A stretch of 64,000 nt of DNA from Thainema sp. (lineage in GTDB: Bacteria; Cyanobacteriota; Cyanobacteriia; Phormidesmidales; Phormidesmidaceae). The notes below the pieces were generated by a model. That model was not told where the DNA came from, ran no database searches, and worked only from the letters and a program-made list of their open reading frames with translations. This document shows, piece after piece, positions 1 to 3,521 of the stretch. A program made the position numbers and the translations under genes. The stretch spans positions 256,001 to 320,000 of the forward strand of contig JBQLZK010000002.1 in NCBI GenBank assembly GCA_052168235.1, in the 5' to 3' direction. Each line of letters begins with the position of its first letter. Position 1 is the first letter of the stretch.

Positions 1-572
1 AGTTTACCTATCAGCAAAAGATGGGTAAGTACGAGGAGTTTAAGAATATTTGTCTGGTGGATACACTGGATCACTGCAGTGCAGCAGGCCACCAGTTTGA
101 CCTGTTTGCTATGAGTGTGCAGAACACGTCGCGGATTCAGCAGCAGAACGATCGCACCATCTCTGTCATCATCGGCAATCCGCCCTACAACGCCCACCAG
201 GAAAACTTCAATCAGCGCAACGCTAACCGCCCCTACCAAAGTATCGATAAGGCCATCAAAGACAGCTATATCAAGGAAGGCACTGCCCAGAACCAAATCG
301 TTGTCTACGATATGTATACCCGCTTCTTTCGCTGGGCAACGGATCGATTAGGCAAGAACGGAATCATCGCGTTTATTACTAATCGCTCTTTCATCGACTC
401 GAAAACCTTTGATGGCTTTCGTAAATGTATTGAGCGAGACTTTGACCATATCTACATTGTGGATACTCAATCAGATGTGAGAAACAATCCCAAAATCTCT
501 GGCACCAAGAACAACGTTTTTGGCATTCAAACCGGAATCGCTGTGATGTTTTTAGTAAAAGCGCAGGGCTAG
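1..572 (+). CDS. Adenine DNA methyltransferase half of a Type ISP-like restriction-modification enzyme (5' partial, runs in from upstream)
   Basis: IIGNPPY catalytic motif; YDMYTRFFRWATDR, GIIAFITNRSF and NVFGIQTGIAV segments typical of LlaGI/LlaBIII-like MTase regions; frame is open back to the window start. Confidence 0.85.
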   Translation, partial: FTYQQKMGKYEEFKNICLVDTLDHCSAAGHQFDLFAMSVQNTSRIQQQNDRTISVIIGNPPYNAHQENFNQRNANRPYQSIDKAIKDSYIKEGTAQNQIVVYDMYTRFFRWATDRLGKNGIIAFITNRSFIDSKTFDGFRKCIERDFDHIYIVDTQSDVRNNPKISGTKNNVFGIQTGIAVMFLVKAQG

Positions 573-585
573 ACAAGGGGCACAG

Positions 586-607
586 ACAAGGGGCTTAAGC
601 CCCTTGT
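586..607. repeat. REP-like perfect 22-bp palindrome ACAAGGGGCTTAAGCCCCTTGT in the junction between the two RM genes
   Basis: Read directly; the same 20-bp core recurs at 1396, 1477, 1981 and 2097. Confidence 0.95.
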
Positions 608-628: not shown

Positions 629-2749
629 ATGAGCAAGGCGAAAATCTATTACTTTACGCTGCAAGATGAGCAGACCAAGGAAGAAAAGCTGGAGTGGTTT
701 GAGCAAACCCGTCTAGAGCAAATCCTGTTTGAGCATATCACCCCAGACCGCAAGCACAACTGGGTGAATTTGACCGACAACGATTTTGATGACTTCTTGC
801 CGCTGATTGATAAGCAGGTAAAGGCAAGTAAGTCACAAGAAGCTGTTTTTCAGCTTTTTTCAGCGGGGGTTAAGACTCAGCGCGATGAGTGGGTTTATGA
901 CTTCTCAAAAGAAGCGCTAATTGAGCGCATGAAGTATTTCGTCGAGGTATATCAAGAGCGTCTAAGAGATGGATCGCGACGAAATTTAGACATCAAGTGG
1001 GATCGTGAGCTTGAAAAATATTTGACTAGTAACGTCAAGAAGAGTTTTCATACATCTAATATAGTTCAAAGTATTTACCGACCGTATACAAAACAGTATC
1101 TCTATTTTGATAAGCATTTCAATGGAATGACTTATCAACTTCCAAGTATTTTTCCATCAGCAAAGAAACCTAATAAGGCTATTTGGATTAAATCGGGTAT
1201 AGATGCTCCGTATTTTCATTGGGTTGTAGAGCACATCCCTGATGTGCTTACAAACGGTGGCTCTCAATGCCTCCCCCTCTATCGCTATGACGAAAACGGA
1301 ACCCGCATCGACAACATCACCGACTGGGCATTAGAGCAGTTTCGGCAACATTACAAAGCAGAGTTAGACCAAGCAGCGTCTAAGGCAGCGTCAGGCAAGG
1401 GGCTTAAGCCCCTTGTTCCCCACACAGATGTAGAAAAGCGCAGCGCAGAACAAAACGATCGCTCAGGCGAACCGGGCAAGGGGCTTAAGCCCCTTGTCTC
1501 AGCGGAGCCCCTTGTTCCCCATACATGGTGGTTTGTAACTTTCGTGACTCATAACGCTCGCGTATCCGAACGCATGGTTACTTACGGCGTCAAAAAAGGG
1601 GAACCGCTTATCTTTTCAGCCGAAGATCAAATCTTTATTGCTGAGCAGATTGCTGAAGCTGTCAAACGGTACGAAATTGCGATCGCCGCCTTCAATGTTC
1701 TACCCGATCACGTCCACATGGTGGTTGCCGCATCAACCGAAGCAGAACTGAACGAAAAGATCCGCAAAATCAAAGGTTTTAGTTCTCACCAATATCAGCG
1801 ATCGCGAGACTGGGATAAAGGTCAGCATGTTTGGGCGCAAAAATTTAACCGACAGGCGATCGAAAATGAAATTGCCCTCACTGAGATTTTGGAATATGTG
1901 CTGAATAACCACACTAAACATGCTGAACGCTGGGGCAATGAACTCATTACGATATGGAATGAGGGTGTTACTCCTGGGAACAAGGGGCTTAAGCCCCTTG
2001 TCTTAGAGGGGCCCCTTGCCTCTAGTCGGCCTCTTGCCGAAATTGTGCGAGAAGTCTGCGTTCCGCTTGAAGAGCTTTTCAGCTCTGGAGGGGGAACAAG
2101 GGGCTTAAGCCCCTTGTCTGACCAAGTTGACCAGGCAGAAATCACCAAACTCGACATCTTCCACTACACCTACGCCGTCCTCCACCATCCCGCCTACCGC
2201 ACCAAATACGAACTCAACCTCAAACGCGAATTTCCTCGCCTGCCCTACTACCCCAACTTCCAACAGTGGGCCACCTGGGGCAAAACCCTCATGGATCTGC
2301 ACCTCACCTACGAAACCGCCGCACCCTACGGCCTCGAACGCATTGATCAATCCGGCGTAGGGGCGAATGGCCATTCGCCCCTACAGGCATCGTTAATTCC
2401 CGAAGAAGACACCCCCGCCAAACCCAAGAAAACCCCCAAACCCAAACTCAAAGCCGACAAAACCCAAGGCCATATCATCCTCGATACCGATACCACCCTT
2501 ACCGGAGTGCCCGCCGTTGCCTGGGACTACAAACTCGGCAACCGCTCCGCCCTGGAGTGGATACTCGATCAATACAAAGAAAAGAAACCCAAAGATCCTA
2601 CGATCCGAGAACTCTTCAACACCTACCGCTTCGCCGATTACAAAGAGCACGTCATCGACCTACTCCAGCGCGTCTGCACCGTCAGCGTCGAGACGATGAA
2701 AATCATCCACCAAATGCCCGACACTGTAGAACATGAAGGCGAGGCATGA
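629..2749 (+). CDS. Type ISP RM C-terminal specificity (target-recognition) protein with an in-frame Y1/RAYT transposase domain insertion
   Basis: GVKTQRDEWVYDF, YRPYTKQYLYF, NITDWAL, DIFHYTYAVLHHPAYR..Y..NLKREFPRLP and WDYKLGNRSALEWILDQYK are Type ISP C-terminal motifs; purine-rich RBS upstream of the ATG. Confidence 0.85.
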   Translation: MSKAKIYYFTLQDEQTKEEKLEWFEQTRLEQILFEHITPDRKHNWVNLTDNDFDDFLPLIDKQVKASKSQEAVFQLFSAGVKTQRDEWVYDFSKEALIERMKYFVEVYQERLRDGSRRNLDIKWDRELEKYLTSNVKKSFHTSNIVQSIYRPYTKQYLYFDKHFNGMTYQLPSIFPSAKKPNKAIWIKSGIDAPYFHWVVEHIPDVLTNGGSQCLPLYRYDENGTRIDNITDWALEQFRQHYKAELDQAASKAASGKGLKPLVPHTDVEKRSAEQNDRSGEPGKGLKPLVSAEPLVPHTWWFVTFVTHNARVSERMVTYGVKKGEPLIFSAEDQIFIAEQIAEAVKRYEIAIAAFNVLPDHVHMVVAASTEAELNEKIRKIKGFSSHQYQRSRDWDKGQHVWAQKFNRQAIENEIALTEILEYVLNNHTKHAERWGNELITIWNEGVTPGNKGLKPLVLEGPLASSRPLAEIVREVCVPLEELFSSGGGTRGLSPLSDQVDQAEITKLDIFHYTYAVLHHPAYRTKYELNLKREFPRLPYYPNFQQWATWGKTLMDLHLTYETAAPYGLERIDQSGVGANGHSPLQASLIPEEDTPAKPKKTPKPKLKADKTQGHIILDTDTTLTGVPAVAWDYKLGNRSALEWILDQYKEKKPKDPTIRELFNTYRFADYKEHVIDLLQRVCTVSVETMKIIHQMPDTVEHEGEA
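1358..2137 (+). mobile_element. In-frame insert of about 260 codons: HUH/Y1 tyrosine transposase domain (RAYT/IS200 TnpA-like, about 1526-1933) flanked by four REP-like palindromes
   Basis: FVTFVTH, NVLPDHVH (HUH), KIKGFSS, WAQKF and EYVLNN (catalytic Tyr); palindromes at 1396-1415, 1477-1496, 1980-2001 and 2096-2117; imperfect direct repeat GACCA(A/G)GCAG at 1367 and 2129. Confidence 0.85.
2357..2384. repeat. GTAG-type REP, perfect 28-bp palindrome, in frame within the specificity gene
   Basis: GTAGGGGCGAATGG-CCATTCGCCCCTAC, translated as VGANGHSPL. Confidence 0.9.
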
Positions 2750-2770
2750 TGGTGCTGTGAGCAACCATTT

Positions 2771-2840
2771 CAAACTCTCCGATACCAAGAACAACGTCTT
2801 TGGCATTCAAACCAGAACCGCTGTCATGTTTTTAGTAAAA
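2771..2840 (+). repeat. Diverged copy of the 3' end of the MTase gene (491-560)
   Basis: 62/70 identical by manual alignment, no gaps. Confidence 0.95.
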
Positions 2841-2860: not shown

Positions 2861-3130
2861 ATGATTCAACCTACTTTGTTAGAGAAACTAGAGGTATTAC
2901 CAGAATCACTACAAACGGAAGTGCTGCATTATGTTGAATTTCTGTTAGAGAAACACCTCAAAAATAAACCACCTAGCCTTTTAGAATTACGGGAAGAATT
3001 ACAGCAGGAATTAGCGCAACTCACGCCGGAAGAAGCGGAAAAGCGTTATGGATATGGTAGCCTGAAAGGCCAGATTATCATGTCTGATGATTTTGACGAG
3101 CCGCTAGAAGATTTAGCAGAGTATATGTAA
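2861..3130 (+). CDS. DUF2281-type antitoxin
   Basis: LPESLQTEVLHYVEFL N-terminus and GSLKGQIIMSDDFDEPLED C-terminus; lies directly upstream of a PIN gene. Confidence 0.8.
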   Translation: MIQPTLLEKLEVLPESLQTEVLHYVEFLLEKHLKNKPPSLLELREELQQELAQLTPEEAEKRYGYGSLKGQIIMSDDFDEPLEDLAEYM

Positions 3131-3131
3131 C

Positions 3132-3521
3132 ATGCCGATCCTTTTAGATACTCATGCTGTCCTTTGGTATGTTGAGTCAGATCCTAGCCTTAGTGCTAAA
3201 GCTAAGGCTATTTTAGATGCCAAAAAGAATCTGTTTTTTAGTACTGCTAGCCTGTGGGAAACTGCCATCAAGCTCAATGTCGGTAAACTCCAAATCACTT
3301 CGTCATTTAATCAGCTTCTGATTCGGCTTGAGTTCCTGAATATGGAAATTTTGCCGATCAATACAGAAGATCTCAATACTTATATTGGTCTACCTTTATC
3401 GAAGAATCACCGTGATCCCTTTGACCGTATTTTGGTGGCTCAATCCATTAACCATTCAATGCCTATCTTGAGTGGTGACGAGAAATTTGATTTGTATCCA
3501 GTTCAGCGGGTGTGGGAATGA
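3132..3521 (+). CDS. vapC: PIN-domain VapC-family toxin
   Basis: LLDTHA, SLWETAIK, HRDPFDRILVAQ and LSGD motifs. Confidence 0.9.
   Translation: MPILLDTHAVLWYVESDPSLSAKAKAILDAKKNLFFSTASLWETAIKLNVGKLQITSSFNQLLIRLEFLNMEILPINTEDLNTYIGLPLSKNHRDPFDRILVAQSINHSMPILSGDEKFDLYPVQRVWE

Follow-up and report, generated by a model that had tools for sequence, protein, structure and literature searches.

A Y1 transposase domain and its flanking palindromes read through in frame within a restriction-modification gene of Thainema sp.

The window analysed here, a stretch of 64,000 nucleotides (nt) of the forward strand from Thainema sp. (contig JBQLZK010000002.1, positions 256,001 to 320,000), carries near its start a restriction-modification (RM) gene whose target recognition domain (TRD) is interrupted, without loss of the reading frame, by a Y1/HUH transposase domain accompanied by short palindromes that are translated with it; all coordinates below are window positions. 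The reading that we favour, at a probability of roughly 0.55, is that this feature represents a cassette of Y1 transposase and hairpins, read through in frame and specialised on RM genes. As judged from sequence comparison, the cassette comprises a 146-residue catalytic domain, similar to those of IS200 insertion sequences (IS) and of the transposases associated with repetitive extragenic palindromes (REPs), termed RAYTs (REP-associated tyrosine transposases), together with its own putative cognate palindromes, and it occupies what is a two-residue turn of the TRD. The normal habitat of this Y1 lineage appears to be inside or directly beside RM genes of the Eco57I family, and the main point is that a Y1 lineage seems to live in frame inside the RM genes of many phyla. 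The cassette is dispensable to its host enzyme and has come and gone often with respect to the backbone, because on host trees at least 16 to 18 switches between filled and empty are needed and the backbone nearest to that of the window is empty.

The insert consists of 262 stop-free residues between NITDWALEQFRQHY, which ends at residue 242, and ITKLDIFHY, which starts at residue 505 (nt 2141). This length agrees with an earlier sequence-only reading of the stretch, in which two motifs of Type ISP enzymes were reported to be split by about 260 codons devoid of stops. The insertion site corresponds to a 2-residue turn in the solved structure of DrdV, located between the aligned flanks 588-839 and 842-1026. 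A Pfam search identified Y1_Tnp at residues 328-426 with an E value of 2.2e-13 (50.8-52.7 bits against a cut-off of 23), and the hallmarks of the superfamily, the HUH motif DHVH and the catalytic tyrosine of YVLNNHTKH, were located where the same reading had placed them (DHVH and EYVLNN). The window contains one Y1 copy. The palindrome CAAGGGGCTTAAGCCCCTTG occurs in exact form at 587, 1396, 1477, 1981 and 2097, against an expectation of 0.01, and five or more copies were obtained in 0 of 100 shuffles. All five copies lie within 1.6 kilobases (kb) of Y1, four of them inside the open reading frame (ORF), and no further copy, exact or conforming to a looser pattern, was found in the 64 kb. The two palindromes per side that had been described as read KGLKPLV or RGLSPL are indeed present, those at 1396, 1477 and 1981 encoding KGLKPLV and that at 2097 encoding RGLSPL, while the copy at 587 is an addition to the earlier description. 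The outermost two palindromes of the insert, with their flanks, constitute 39-nt inverted repeats (Table 1).

No in-frame ATG is found from nt 1355 to the conserved first strand WWFVTFVTHNARV, and the Y1 domain is thus probably made only as part of the TRD protein. The domain is under purifying selection and not a dead accident, since the ratio of non-synonymous to synonymous substitution rates (dN/dS, Nei-Gojobori) is 0.13 in comparison with scanned locus L001 (dS 0.28) and 0.08 in comparison with loci L002 and L004, for which synonymous sites are near saturation. The linkers display dN/dS values of 0.3-0.6 with depressed dS, as expected if the DNA palindromes, and not the peptides, are conserved in these regions. 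Values of 0.13 or below for Y1, together with the family-wide habit described below, argue against the possibility, raised at the outset, of a unique accident lacking purifying selection. The structure of the whole TRD-Y1 protein was predicted with AlphaFold2 from a 23-row alignment, and matches in the PDB were used for the Y1 core and for naming the host family only. The mean predicted local distance difference test score (pLDDT) was 58.4 and the predicted template modelling score (pTM) 0.33; pLDDT reached 88-92 for Y1 residues 331-390 and was below 50 for residues 252-296 of the left linker, as for the linkers overall. Foldseek searches with the Y1 part agreed with relatives of the transposase TnpA, with TM-scores (template modelling scores) of up to 0.70, normalised on the target.

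The host is, on the evidence of its sequence, a live split DrdV-like Type IIL/IIG RM enzyme and not a pseudogene, because its parts are under purifying selection, with dN/dS of 0.10-0.20 for the N-terminal and 0.18-0.27 for the C-terminal part of the TRD. Pfam matched Type_ISP_C to the TRD ORF as two stretches (E 5.6e-92) broken by Y1_Tnp, so that both domains for which a profile hidden Markov model search had been proposed were recovered. The ORF aligned with DrdV (7LO5) with an E value of 6.8e-114, and PADLOC identified its product as REase_MTase_IIG (9e-85). The assignment of the host to Type ISP stands for the domain but probably not for the enzyme, which is DrdV-like and appears distinct from the helicase-bearing Type ISP proteins. 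The N-terminal end of the window gene, where a PD-ExK nuclease domain would be expected, lies upstream of window position 1; for the full-length fused homologues (989-1046 residues) the domains listed were only PF22240, PF02384, PF07669 and PF18135, with no helicase domain among them, and these proteins start with a PD...ExK-like segment, a motif judged by eye. TRD-only ORFs of 392-479 residues are the most frequent form among the best 120 homologues of the window protein. A 56-nt spacer separates the methylase ORF from the TRD ORF; it holds the palindrome at 587-606, followed by purine-rich GGGAGGGGGAG and by the ATG at 629. The same split layout, a methylase ORF followed by a TRD ORF, with a hairpin in the spacer, is observed at locus L008, which displays 73% DNA identity and has its palindrome copy at the matching spacer position (613).

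The best 120 homologues of the window protein were classified by the content of the TRD loop, leaving out five that lack the anchor motifs. The loop is empty in 86, holds Y1 in 12, holds the Vsr-like endonuclease domain DUF559 (PF04480) in 15 and carries short repeat inserts in 2, which bears out the suggestion that elsewhere this loop might be empty or hold other passengers. In the 86 empty homologues the anchors are separated by 12-25 residues, mostly 13, and the loop reads NITDWGLTQFQTHYxDPTITK; together with the DrdV turn, this spacing confirms that the two motifs normally lie only a few residues apart. The 12 Y1-filled loops display the flanking peptides RGLSPL/KGLKPLV, and the DUF559-filled loops (P0007, P0014, P0022, P0024 and P0112 among them) have translated repeat peptides of their own (PSPAGEG..., PLGKGDSS...). 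The TRD loop is therefore a hotspot that has received nuclease-plus-repeat cassettes of two or more unrelated kinds. The flank preceding the insert is WALExFR in 29/29 filled alleles and WGLTQFQ in most of the 86 empty ones, while P0011, P0029 and P0113 present the WAL flank despite an empty loop. This short, co-varying flank points to homologous recombination as the probable route for at least part of the exchange.

A host tree of cyanobacterial TRDs was built from host columns only, the loop and the anchors having been removed. On this tree the filled/empty state requires 16 changes and the Y1 state 8, at least 5 of the latter being forced by starred branches. Separate trees of the N- and C-terminal parts gave 17 and 20 changes, respectively, the C-part tree being poorly resolved (7/104 branches starred), and recombination blurs all host trees. 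The window protein clusters, with a Shimodaira-Hasegawa-like approximate likelihood ratio test (SH-aLRT) value of 99, with the empty backbone P0006 (94% identity) and with P0007, the second-nearest backbone, which holds DUF559. A single ancient insertion followed by vertical descent is not supported by the host trees. Mosaic alleles were also identified: the Y1 domains of P0003 and P0005 are identical while their TRD N-parts are only 68% identical, and, when the window is compared with L001, dS falls from 1.03 in the TRD N-part to 0.28 in Y1. Loop content is thus exchanged between backbones.

Searching 1.84 billion protein representatives with the 146-residue Y1 core (E <= 1e-3) revealed a family of 409 representatives. 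The listed representatives with 390 residues or more number 50; 49 of them were scanned for domains, the remaining one, P0038, being a TRD-plus-Y1 protein. For 46/49 the host of the Y1 domain is an Eco57I-type methylase with the architecture of Type IIG (N-terminus HSDR_N or of the MmeI type, TaqI_C TRD); the remaining three are a Type_ISP_C protein, a CobQ-like protein and a protein without any other domain, bringing the RM-type hosts to 47/49. The sole clear non-RM host of the 49 is P0149 (656 residues), with Y1 at the C-terminus of a CobQ/CobB-like amidotransferase. At the DNA level, 185,579 genomes, one per species, were scanned with a peptide pattern from the Y1 N-terminus, which gave 97 loci, of which 80 were kept. 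These span Cyanobacteria, Chloroflexota, Acidobacteriota, Bacteroidota, Balneolaceae, Patescibacteria, Deltaproteobacteria and others, the closest to the window being L001 (92%). When the Y1 frame was extended from stop to stop and host motifs were sought in that frame, 49 loci were found embedded in a Type IIG methylase, 7 in the TRD loop, 19 free-standing and 5 other or truncated; 56/80 are thus in frame inside RM ORFs. The Type IIG insertion site is constant in the 49 loci, between ...FDWxxEFPxVF and GGFDVVIGNPPY. The TRD-loop architecture of the window recurs in seven other assemblies (L001, L002 and L004-L008), which makes the misassembly considered at the outset unlikely. Nearly every copy has the motifs DH[VI]H and Y-x3-N-x3-H. 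The sole copies interrupted by internal stops are four of the free or other class (L032, L068, L074, L077), and only two loci, L032 and L053, have the appearance of a broken embedding. Among the 24 free or other loci, six adjoin Eco57I-type or HSDR_N-bearing RM ORFs (L024, L032, L053, L065, L066, L080) and two more adjoin other DNA methylase ORFs (L059, L076). Embedded and free-standing copies are intermingled in the Y1 tree, which requires 7 changes between them, and the TRD-loop group forms one clade nested among Type IIG and free copies.

The Type IIG hosts display the same polymorphism as the TRDs. The best 120 homologues of the host at locus L045 comprise 66 with Y1 and 54 without, at equal host identity in the N-part (median 68.1% and 67.6%, respectively). 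The filled/empty state changes at least 18 times on the N-half tree and at least 15 times on the C-half tree. At L012, L017, L037 and L047 the host halves around Y1 best match different PADLOC Type IIG subfamilies (e.g. N 03604, C 03609), a comparison made without Y1-free control genes, which could reflect exchange of halves at the insertion point. No Y1 of this family was found by tblastn against 72,556 plasmid records (E <= 1e-8).

The cognate hairpin, conserved as DNA across phyla, lies beside the Y1 domain throughout the family, in the form (A/G)ACAAGGGG-N4-CCCCTTGT(T/C), with the stem variants CAATGGG/CCCATTG, CAGTGGG/CCCACTG, CAGACGG/CCGTCTG and CAGAGGG/CCCTCTG and, among the variants, the centres CTTAAG, TTGCAA and CTGAAG. 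Its density is 0.50/kb within 2.5 kb of Y1 and 0.029/kb beyond, against 0.1 per 64 kb in the shuffled window. A hairpin is located downstream of Y1 at 36/42 Type IIG-embedded, 6/6 TRD-loop and 13/17 free-standing loci, and within 200 nt upstream at 4/47, 7/7 and 14/18, respectively. The downstream hairpin encodes a conserved KGL(K/Q)PLV peptide, which also ends the free-standing proteins. Compensated stems, with changes in both arms and pairing kept, numbered 49 sites against 32 with one unpaired position, a rough count taken from arms within two changes of the canonical sequence, where a further 186 sites with 2-4 unpaired positions are mostly chance matches. A hairpin also stands at most 160 nt past the host stop at 9/38 testable embedded loci, where 0.4% per such window is expected (binomial P about 8e-14), and before the host ORF at 6/39. 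Both sides are occupied at 4/26 testable loci only, and the proposal that the whole RM gene is always bracketed by hairpins was therefore rejected.

Several loci display further arrangements of hairpins and repeats. At L047, inverted repeats of ~40 nt surround the RM ORF, and at L045 direct repeats surround the ORF. Direct repeats of ~115 nt at L007 (6138-6252 and 12285-12388; 87-97% identical), each with a family hairpin, bracket a 6.1-kb block of RM and toxin-antitoxin (TA) genes that comprises a methylase ORF, two small ORFs, the TRD-Y1 ORF and one more ORF. At L065 the order is hairpin, Y1, hairpin, RM gene, hairpin and at L066 hairpin, RM gene, hairpin, Y1, the RM gene being uninterrupted and Y1 free in both. 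Tandem hairpin-derived peptides were observed in the Y1 linkers of L003 (upstream of 10001), L015 (downstream of 10417) and L029 (downstream of 462), with the repeat units ETRGL x9, KGQSEG x7 and PLVPQ x8 across these loci, which indicates probable in-frame slippage or duplication of hairpin halves. Hairpin pairs whose 30-nt flanks are identical, at L037 (9061/9425, 364 nt apart) and at L078 (85/823, 738 nt apart), look like recent local duplications of hairpin-containing units.

If the favoured reading is correct, the Y1 domain, having no start codon of its own, would be expressed only within the TRD protein from the ATG at 629 and would fold as a separate globule on disordered linkers, while the RM enzyme would keep working and the carrying cost would be low. 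The insert would be tolerated owing to its position in surface turns. Like the TnpA of IS200/IS605 and the RAYTs, Y1 would dimerise and bind CAAGGGG...CCCCTTG hairpins in single-stranded DNA, and it would cut and rejoin the DNA beside the hairpins through a phosphotyrosine link. Segments bounded by hairpins might in this way be excised or copied, and new hairpins seeded nearby. A filled loop could also move between alleles by homologous recombination, dragging the WALExFR flank along in place of WGLTQFQ. We infer this cut-and-paste chemistry at hairpins by analogy with IS200/IS605 and RAYT relatives (PMC3597680, PMC5027513).

Several observations weigh against this reading. Identity of Y1 correlates with identity of the host among the 12 Y1-bearing proteins (Spearman 0.81), so that long co-residence with repeated loss or recombination fits as well as fresh transposition. 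No excision, circle junction or truly isogenic pair of filled and empty DNA was seen, empty alleles being known as proteins only. The copies are solitary, with all 80 kept loci coming from different contigs and the one copy in the window, and such a single-copy pattern is read as domestication in PMC5581495. Hairpins are lacking within 200 nt upstream in 43/47 Type IIG-embedded copies, yet these keep catalytic motifs and open frames. Self-mobilisation alone hardly accounts for this, which speaks for a role for the host gene. The scan pattern, being N-terminal, misses decayed copies, and the rarity of broken copies is thus partly a matter of ascertainment. Finally, the AlphaFold2 model is too poor to give the geometry of the insertion on the TRD; of the surface-loop arrangement for which structure prediction had been proposed as a test, a confident Y1 core was obtained but its seat on the TRD was not given.

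Some of these points are accommodated by an alternative that we consider possible, although unlikely, in which the RM gene has taken Y1 and the hairpins into service as a device of its own for mobility or shuffling. The border hairpins would then be cut and join sites used for moving the whole RM gene or for swapping halves or the TRD, thereby spreading the gene or changing its specificity. Recruitment by RM genes would explain the strict host range, the border hairpins and the retention of catalytic residues in the absence of an upstream hairpin. It is in keeping with a family almost confined to RM genes, with open frames and catalytic motifs in IIG-embedded copies of which 43/47 have no adjoining upstream hairpin, and with the hairpins at host gene borders (9/38 after the stop, 6/39 before the ORF, 4/26 both). 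The repeats bracketing the RM loci in L047, L045 and L007, the hairpin arrays of L065 and L066, the position of the window hairpin exactly at the methylase/TRD junction, as in L008, and the host halves that best match different PADLOC subfamilies could be understood in the same way. However, hairpins on both sides are confined to 4/26 loci, alternative TRD cassettes with hairpins were seen beside no locus, the mosaic halves may result from ordinary TRD recombination, close relatives without Y1 are presumably functional, and no copy was found on the 72,556 plasmid records. A more specific version, in which RM genes carry their own transposase and the embedded Y1 drives their mobility and diversification, is held to be somewhat less probable. 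Here the hairpins after Y1, at the methylase/TRD junction and just outside start and stop codons would be the cut-and-join sites; the whole gene or a module would be peeled out as single-stranded DNA and pasted elsewhere, the defence gene would thereby pass from genome to genome, and specificity modules would be swapped. No sharp line divides the cassette that we favour from the recruited device, RM genes being selfish and mobile themselves.

It is improbable that Y1 is an integral enzymatic or architectural part of the restriction enzyme, such as an extra single-strand nuclease or a dimerisation module. Purifying selection on Y1 would be expected of such a part, Y1 transposases are dimers (PMC3597680), DrdV cuts only as dimers to tetramers according to bioRxiv 10.1101/2021.01.06.425610, and 15/120 homologues hold another nuclease domain, DUF559, in this loop. 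In contrast, 86/120 TRD and 54/120 Type IIG homologues do without the insert at equal backbone identity, DrdV presents a 2-residue turn at the site, and the conserved flanking DNA palindromes have no role in this model. Accident, artefact and intein are excluded by the data. The split host gene (stop at 570-572), the several palindromes and the 85-nt methylase-end fragment past the TRD might raise the suspicion of an insertion decaying in a pseudogene or of an artefact of assembly, but this is very improbable in view of dN/dS values of 0.08-0.27 for Y1 and TRD, of a split layout and spacer hairpin that recur at L008, of the prevalence of TRD-only ORFs among the best 120 homologues and of the in-frame architecture in seven other assemblies. 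Typical inteins have splice junctions of the form Cys/Ser/Thr ... His-Asn followed by Cys/Ser/Thr. A true intein or protein-splicing element that removes itself from the mature TRD is scarcely credible. The in-frame insertion by a highly conserved motif, the presence/absence polymorphism and the co-varying flank would fit it, but Pfam matched Type_ISP_C and Y1_Tnp only, with no Hint domain, and the junctions (HY followed by KAEL, QAE followed by ITK) appear to lack the splice pattern; the term intein-like, as used earlier, is apt as an analogy for an in-frame parasite and fails for want of a Hint domain.

The positions of the features are collected in Table 1. The 85-nt direct repeats enclose the spacer palindrome and the TRD-Y1 gene, the second copy being a methylase-end fragment directly past the TRD stop. 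The order TRD, methylase-end fragment, TA genes is matched at L006, which has a full-length fused ORF of 1,270 residues; at L007 the order is methylase, TA, TRD. The repeats and these gene orders suggest that the TRD gene may move as a cassette. Downstream in the window lies an ORF for a VapB-family antitoxin (2861-3130; NCBIfam TA_VapB, E 1.4e-24), followed by a 129-residue ORF (3132-3521) with no NCBIfam match; a related VapB/129-residue-type pair is situated between the methylase and TRD ORFs of L007. A second palindrome at 2357-2384, perfect, 28 nt long, GTAG-footed and unrelated to the family palindrome, is translated as GVGANGHSPLQ in the TRD C-part. It has no further copy in the 64 kb, and similar peptides occur at the matching spot in several homologues.

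Table 1. Features of the split restriction-modification locus and its insert, in window positions
Feature	Positions	Strand	Remarks
Methylase ORF, 3' part	3..572	+	extends past window start; IIGNPPY; TAG 570-572; Eco57I Pfam E 2.9e-12
Direct repeat copy a, 85 nt	476..560	+	methylase ORF end; 86% identical to 2756-2840
Fifth palindrome copy	587..606	.	between methylase stop (570-572) and ATG 629
TRD subunit ORF, 706 residues	629..2749	+	carries insert; ATG 629
TRD N-terminal part	629..1354	+	through ...NITDWALEQFRQHY; aligns to DrdV 588-839
Left linker	1355..1507	+	palindromes 1396-1415 and 1477-1496, both translated GKGLKPLV
39-nt inverted repeat, left arm	1390..1428	.	90% complementary to 2084-2122; palindrome and flanks
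Y1/HUH transposase domain	1508..1945	+	DHVH nt 1706-1717; catalytic Tyr codon 1895-1897
Right linker	1946..2140	+	palindromes 1981-2000 (NKGLKPLV) and 2097-2116 (TRGLSPL)
39-nt inverted repeat, right arm	2084..2122	.	pairs with 1390-1428; the two arms bracket the insert
TRD C-terminal part	2141..2749	+	ITKLDIFHYTYAVLHHPAYR to stop; aligns to DrdV 842-1026
Direct repeat copy b	2756..2840	+	methylase-end fragment directly past TRD stop

Y1 transposases with hairpins and in-frame selfish DNA are each of a kind already known. Full-text literature searching found no published description of a Y1 or RAYT domain inside an RM enzyme. The embedded copies always occupy one of two fixed loops, with the DNA recognition hairpin translated within the host protein, and would constitute a natural example of a transposase that spares its target by being read through. 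They provide a testable link between single-strand transposition and the known mobility and modularity of RM genes, as well as two sites, one in the Eco57I methylase fold and the other in the DrdV/ISP recognition domain, that nature has validated as permissive for insertions and that could be of use in engineering. There is also a consequence for annotation: several of the fusions appear at JGI as 'DNA methylase subunit/REP element-mobilizing transposase RayT', while NCBI names some just 'transposase', as happens with the RM enzymes P0028, P0274 and P0281.

Among known systems, the closest relatives of the host are DrdV and the enzymes LlaGI and LlaBIII of Type ISP, which are not relatives of the insert; the latter two have the Pfam Type_ISP_C domain in common with the window TRD. 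DrdV is a single chain of nuclease, connector, methylase and TRD, and its description explains the Pfam name given to the host TRD (bioRxiv 10.1101/2021.01.06.425610). In contrast to DrdV, the window host is encoded by separate methylase and TRD ORFs and has 262 added residues at DrdV position 839/842.

Known Y1/HUH transposases comprise the free-standing enzymes of IS200/IS605 and the single-copy RAYTs, the purpose of which is debated. When compared with solved structures, the family profile matched ISDra2 TnpA with an E value of 2e-11, IS608 TnpA with 2e-7 and the E. coli RAYT 4ER8 with 1.9e-6, and the solved IS200/IS605 TnpA relatives (ISDra2 2XM3/2XMA, IS608 2VHG/2VJV) span 2e-11 to 3e-7. 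NCBIfam scores were 59.3 bits for REP_Tyr_transpos, under the cut-off of 80, and 38 bits for transpos_IS200, under the cut-off of 55. The name RAYT is therefore too narrow for the domain: the Y1 domain and the inverted flanking palindromes agree with it, but the REP_Tyr_transpos score is below the threshold and the sequence is closer to IS200/IS605 TnpA. Both IS200/IS605 TnpA and the window domain are single-domain HUH proteins with one catalytic tyrosine, and TnpA acts on hairpins near the element ends, with precise excision through a single-stranded circle, as PMC5027513 describes. In contrast, the hairpins to the left and right in the window are all perfect palindromes with the same sequence, and the domain lacks an ORF, start codon and promoter of its own, being in frame inside a host gene. 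Moreover, while IS200/IS605 elements have an autonomous tnpA ORF and several identical copies per genome, the window domain is present as one copy per locus.

The RAYT or TnpA-REP systems resemble the window in that Y1 is flanked by inverted palindromic repeats clustered around the gene, and RAYTs are typically single-copy (PMC5581495). Further features set the window apart. The tyrosine motif is Y-x3-N-x3-H, in contrast to the Y..NP form given for RAYT class 2 in Table 1 of PMC6006769. The foot of the hairpin, in the window and related loci, is (A/G)ACAAGGGG and not the GTAG or CGTC described for REP hairpins (PMC3733652). Finally, four of the five window palindromes lie in the coding region and none is found elsewhere in the 64 kb; within this stretch they do not form the dispersed, extragenic REPs that accompany RAYTs. 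The available text of PMC5581495 draws no link between RAYTs and RM genes, the word 'restriction' appearing in its reference list only.

Selfish palindromes that are read through as extra peptide provide another parallel. In 2000, Ogata and co-workers reportedly described Rickettsia palindromic elements (RPEs) inserted in frame in genes. REPs within tnpA-REP genes of subclass 2.4 belong to the same kind, and such insertions are described in PMC6006769. What distinguishes the window from the RPEs and the subclass 2.4 insertions is that the transposase too is read through, as part of a host protein that is an RM enzyme. Inteins and homing-endonuclease genes likewise are in-frame parasites that lie by conserved motifs, with patchy presence and flanks suggestive of co-conversion, as here; in contrast to inteins, however, there is no Hint domain or splicing junction, the insert remains in the protein, and the nuclease is of the HUH type, predicted to act on single-stranded DNA.

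The closest published group to this Y1 family is subclass 1.2 of Quentin et al. 2018 (PMC6006769), IS200-like proteins that occur at low copy in Cyanobacteria and Bacteroidetes and have a DH[IV]H motif and an additional, conserved segment at the C-terminus. For subclass 1.2 the available text reports no typical terminal hairpins and makes no mention of RM fusions. The present family, with Y-x3-N-[HR]-x-K-H in place of Y---Q--HH, is set apart from the main-text description of subclass 1.2 in that source.

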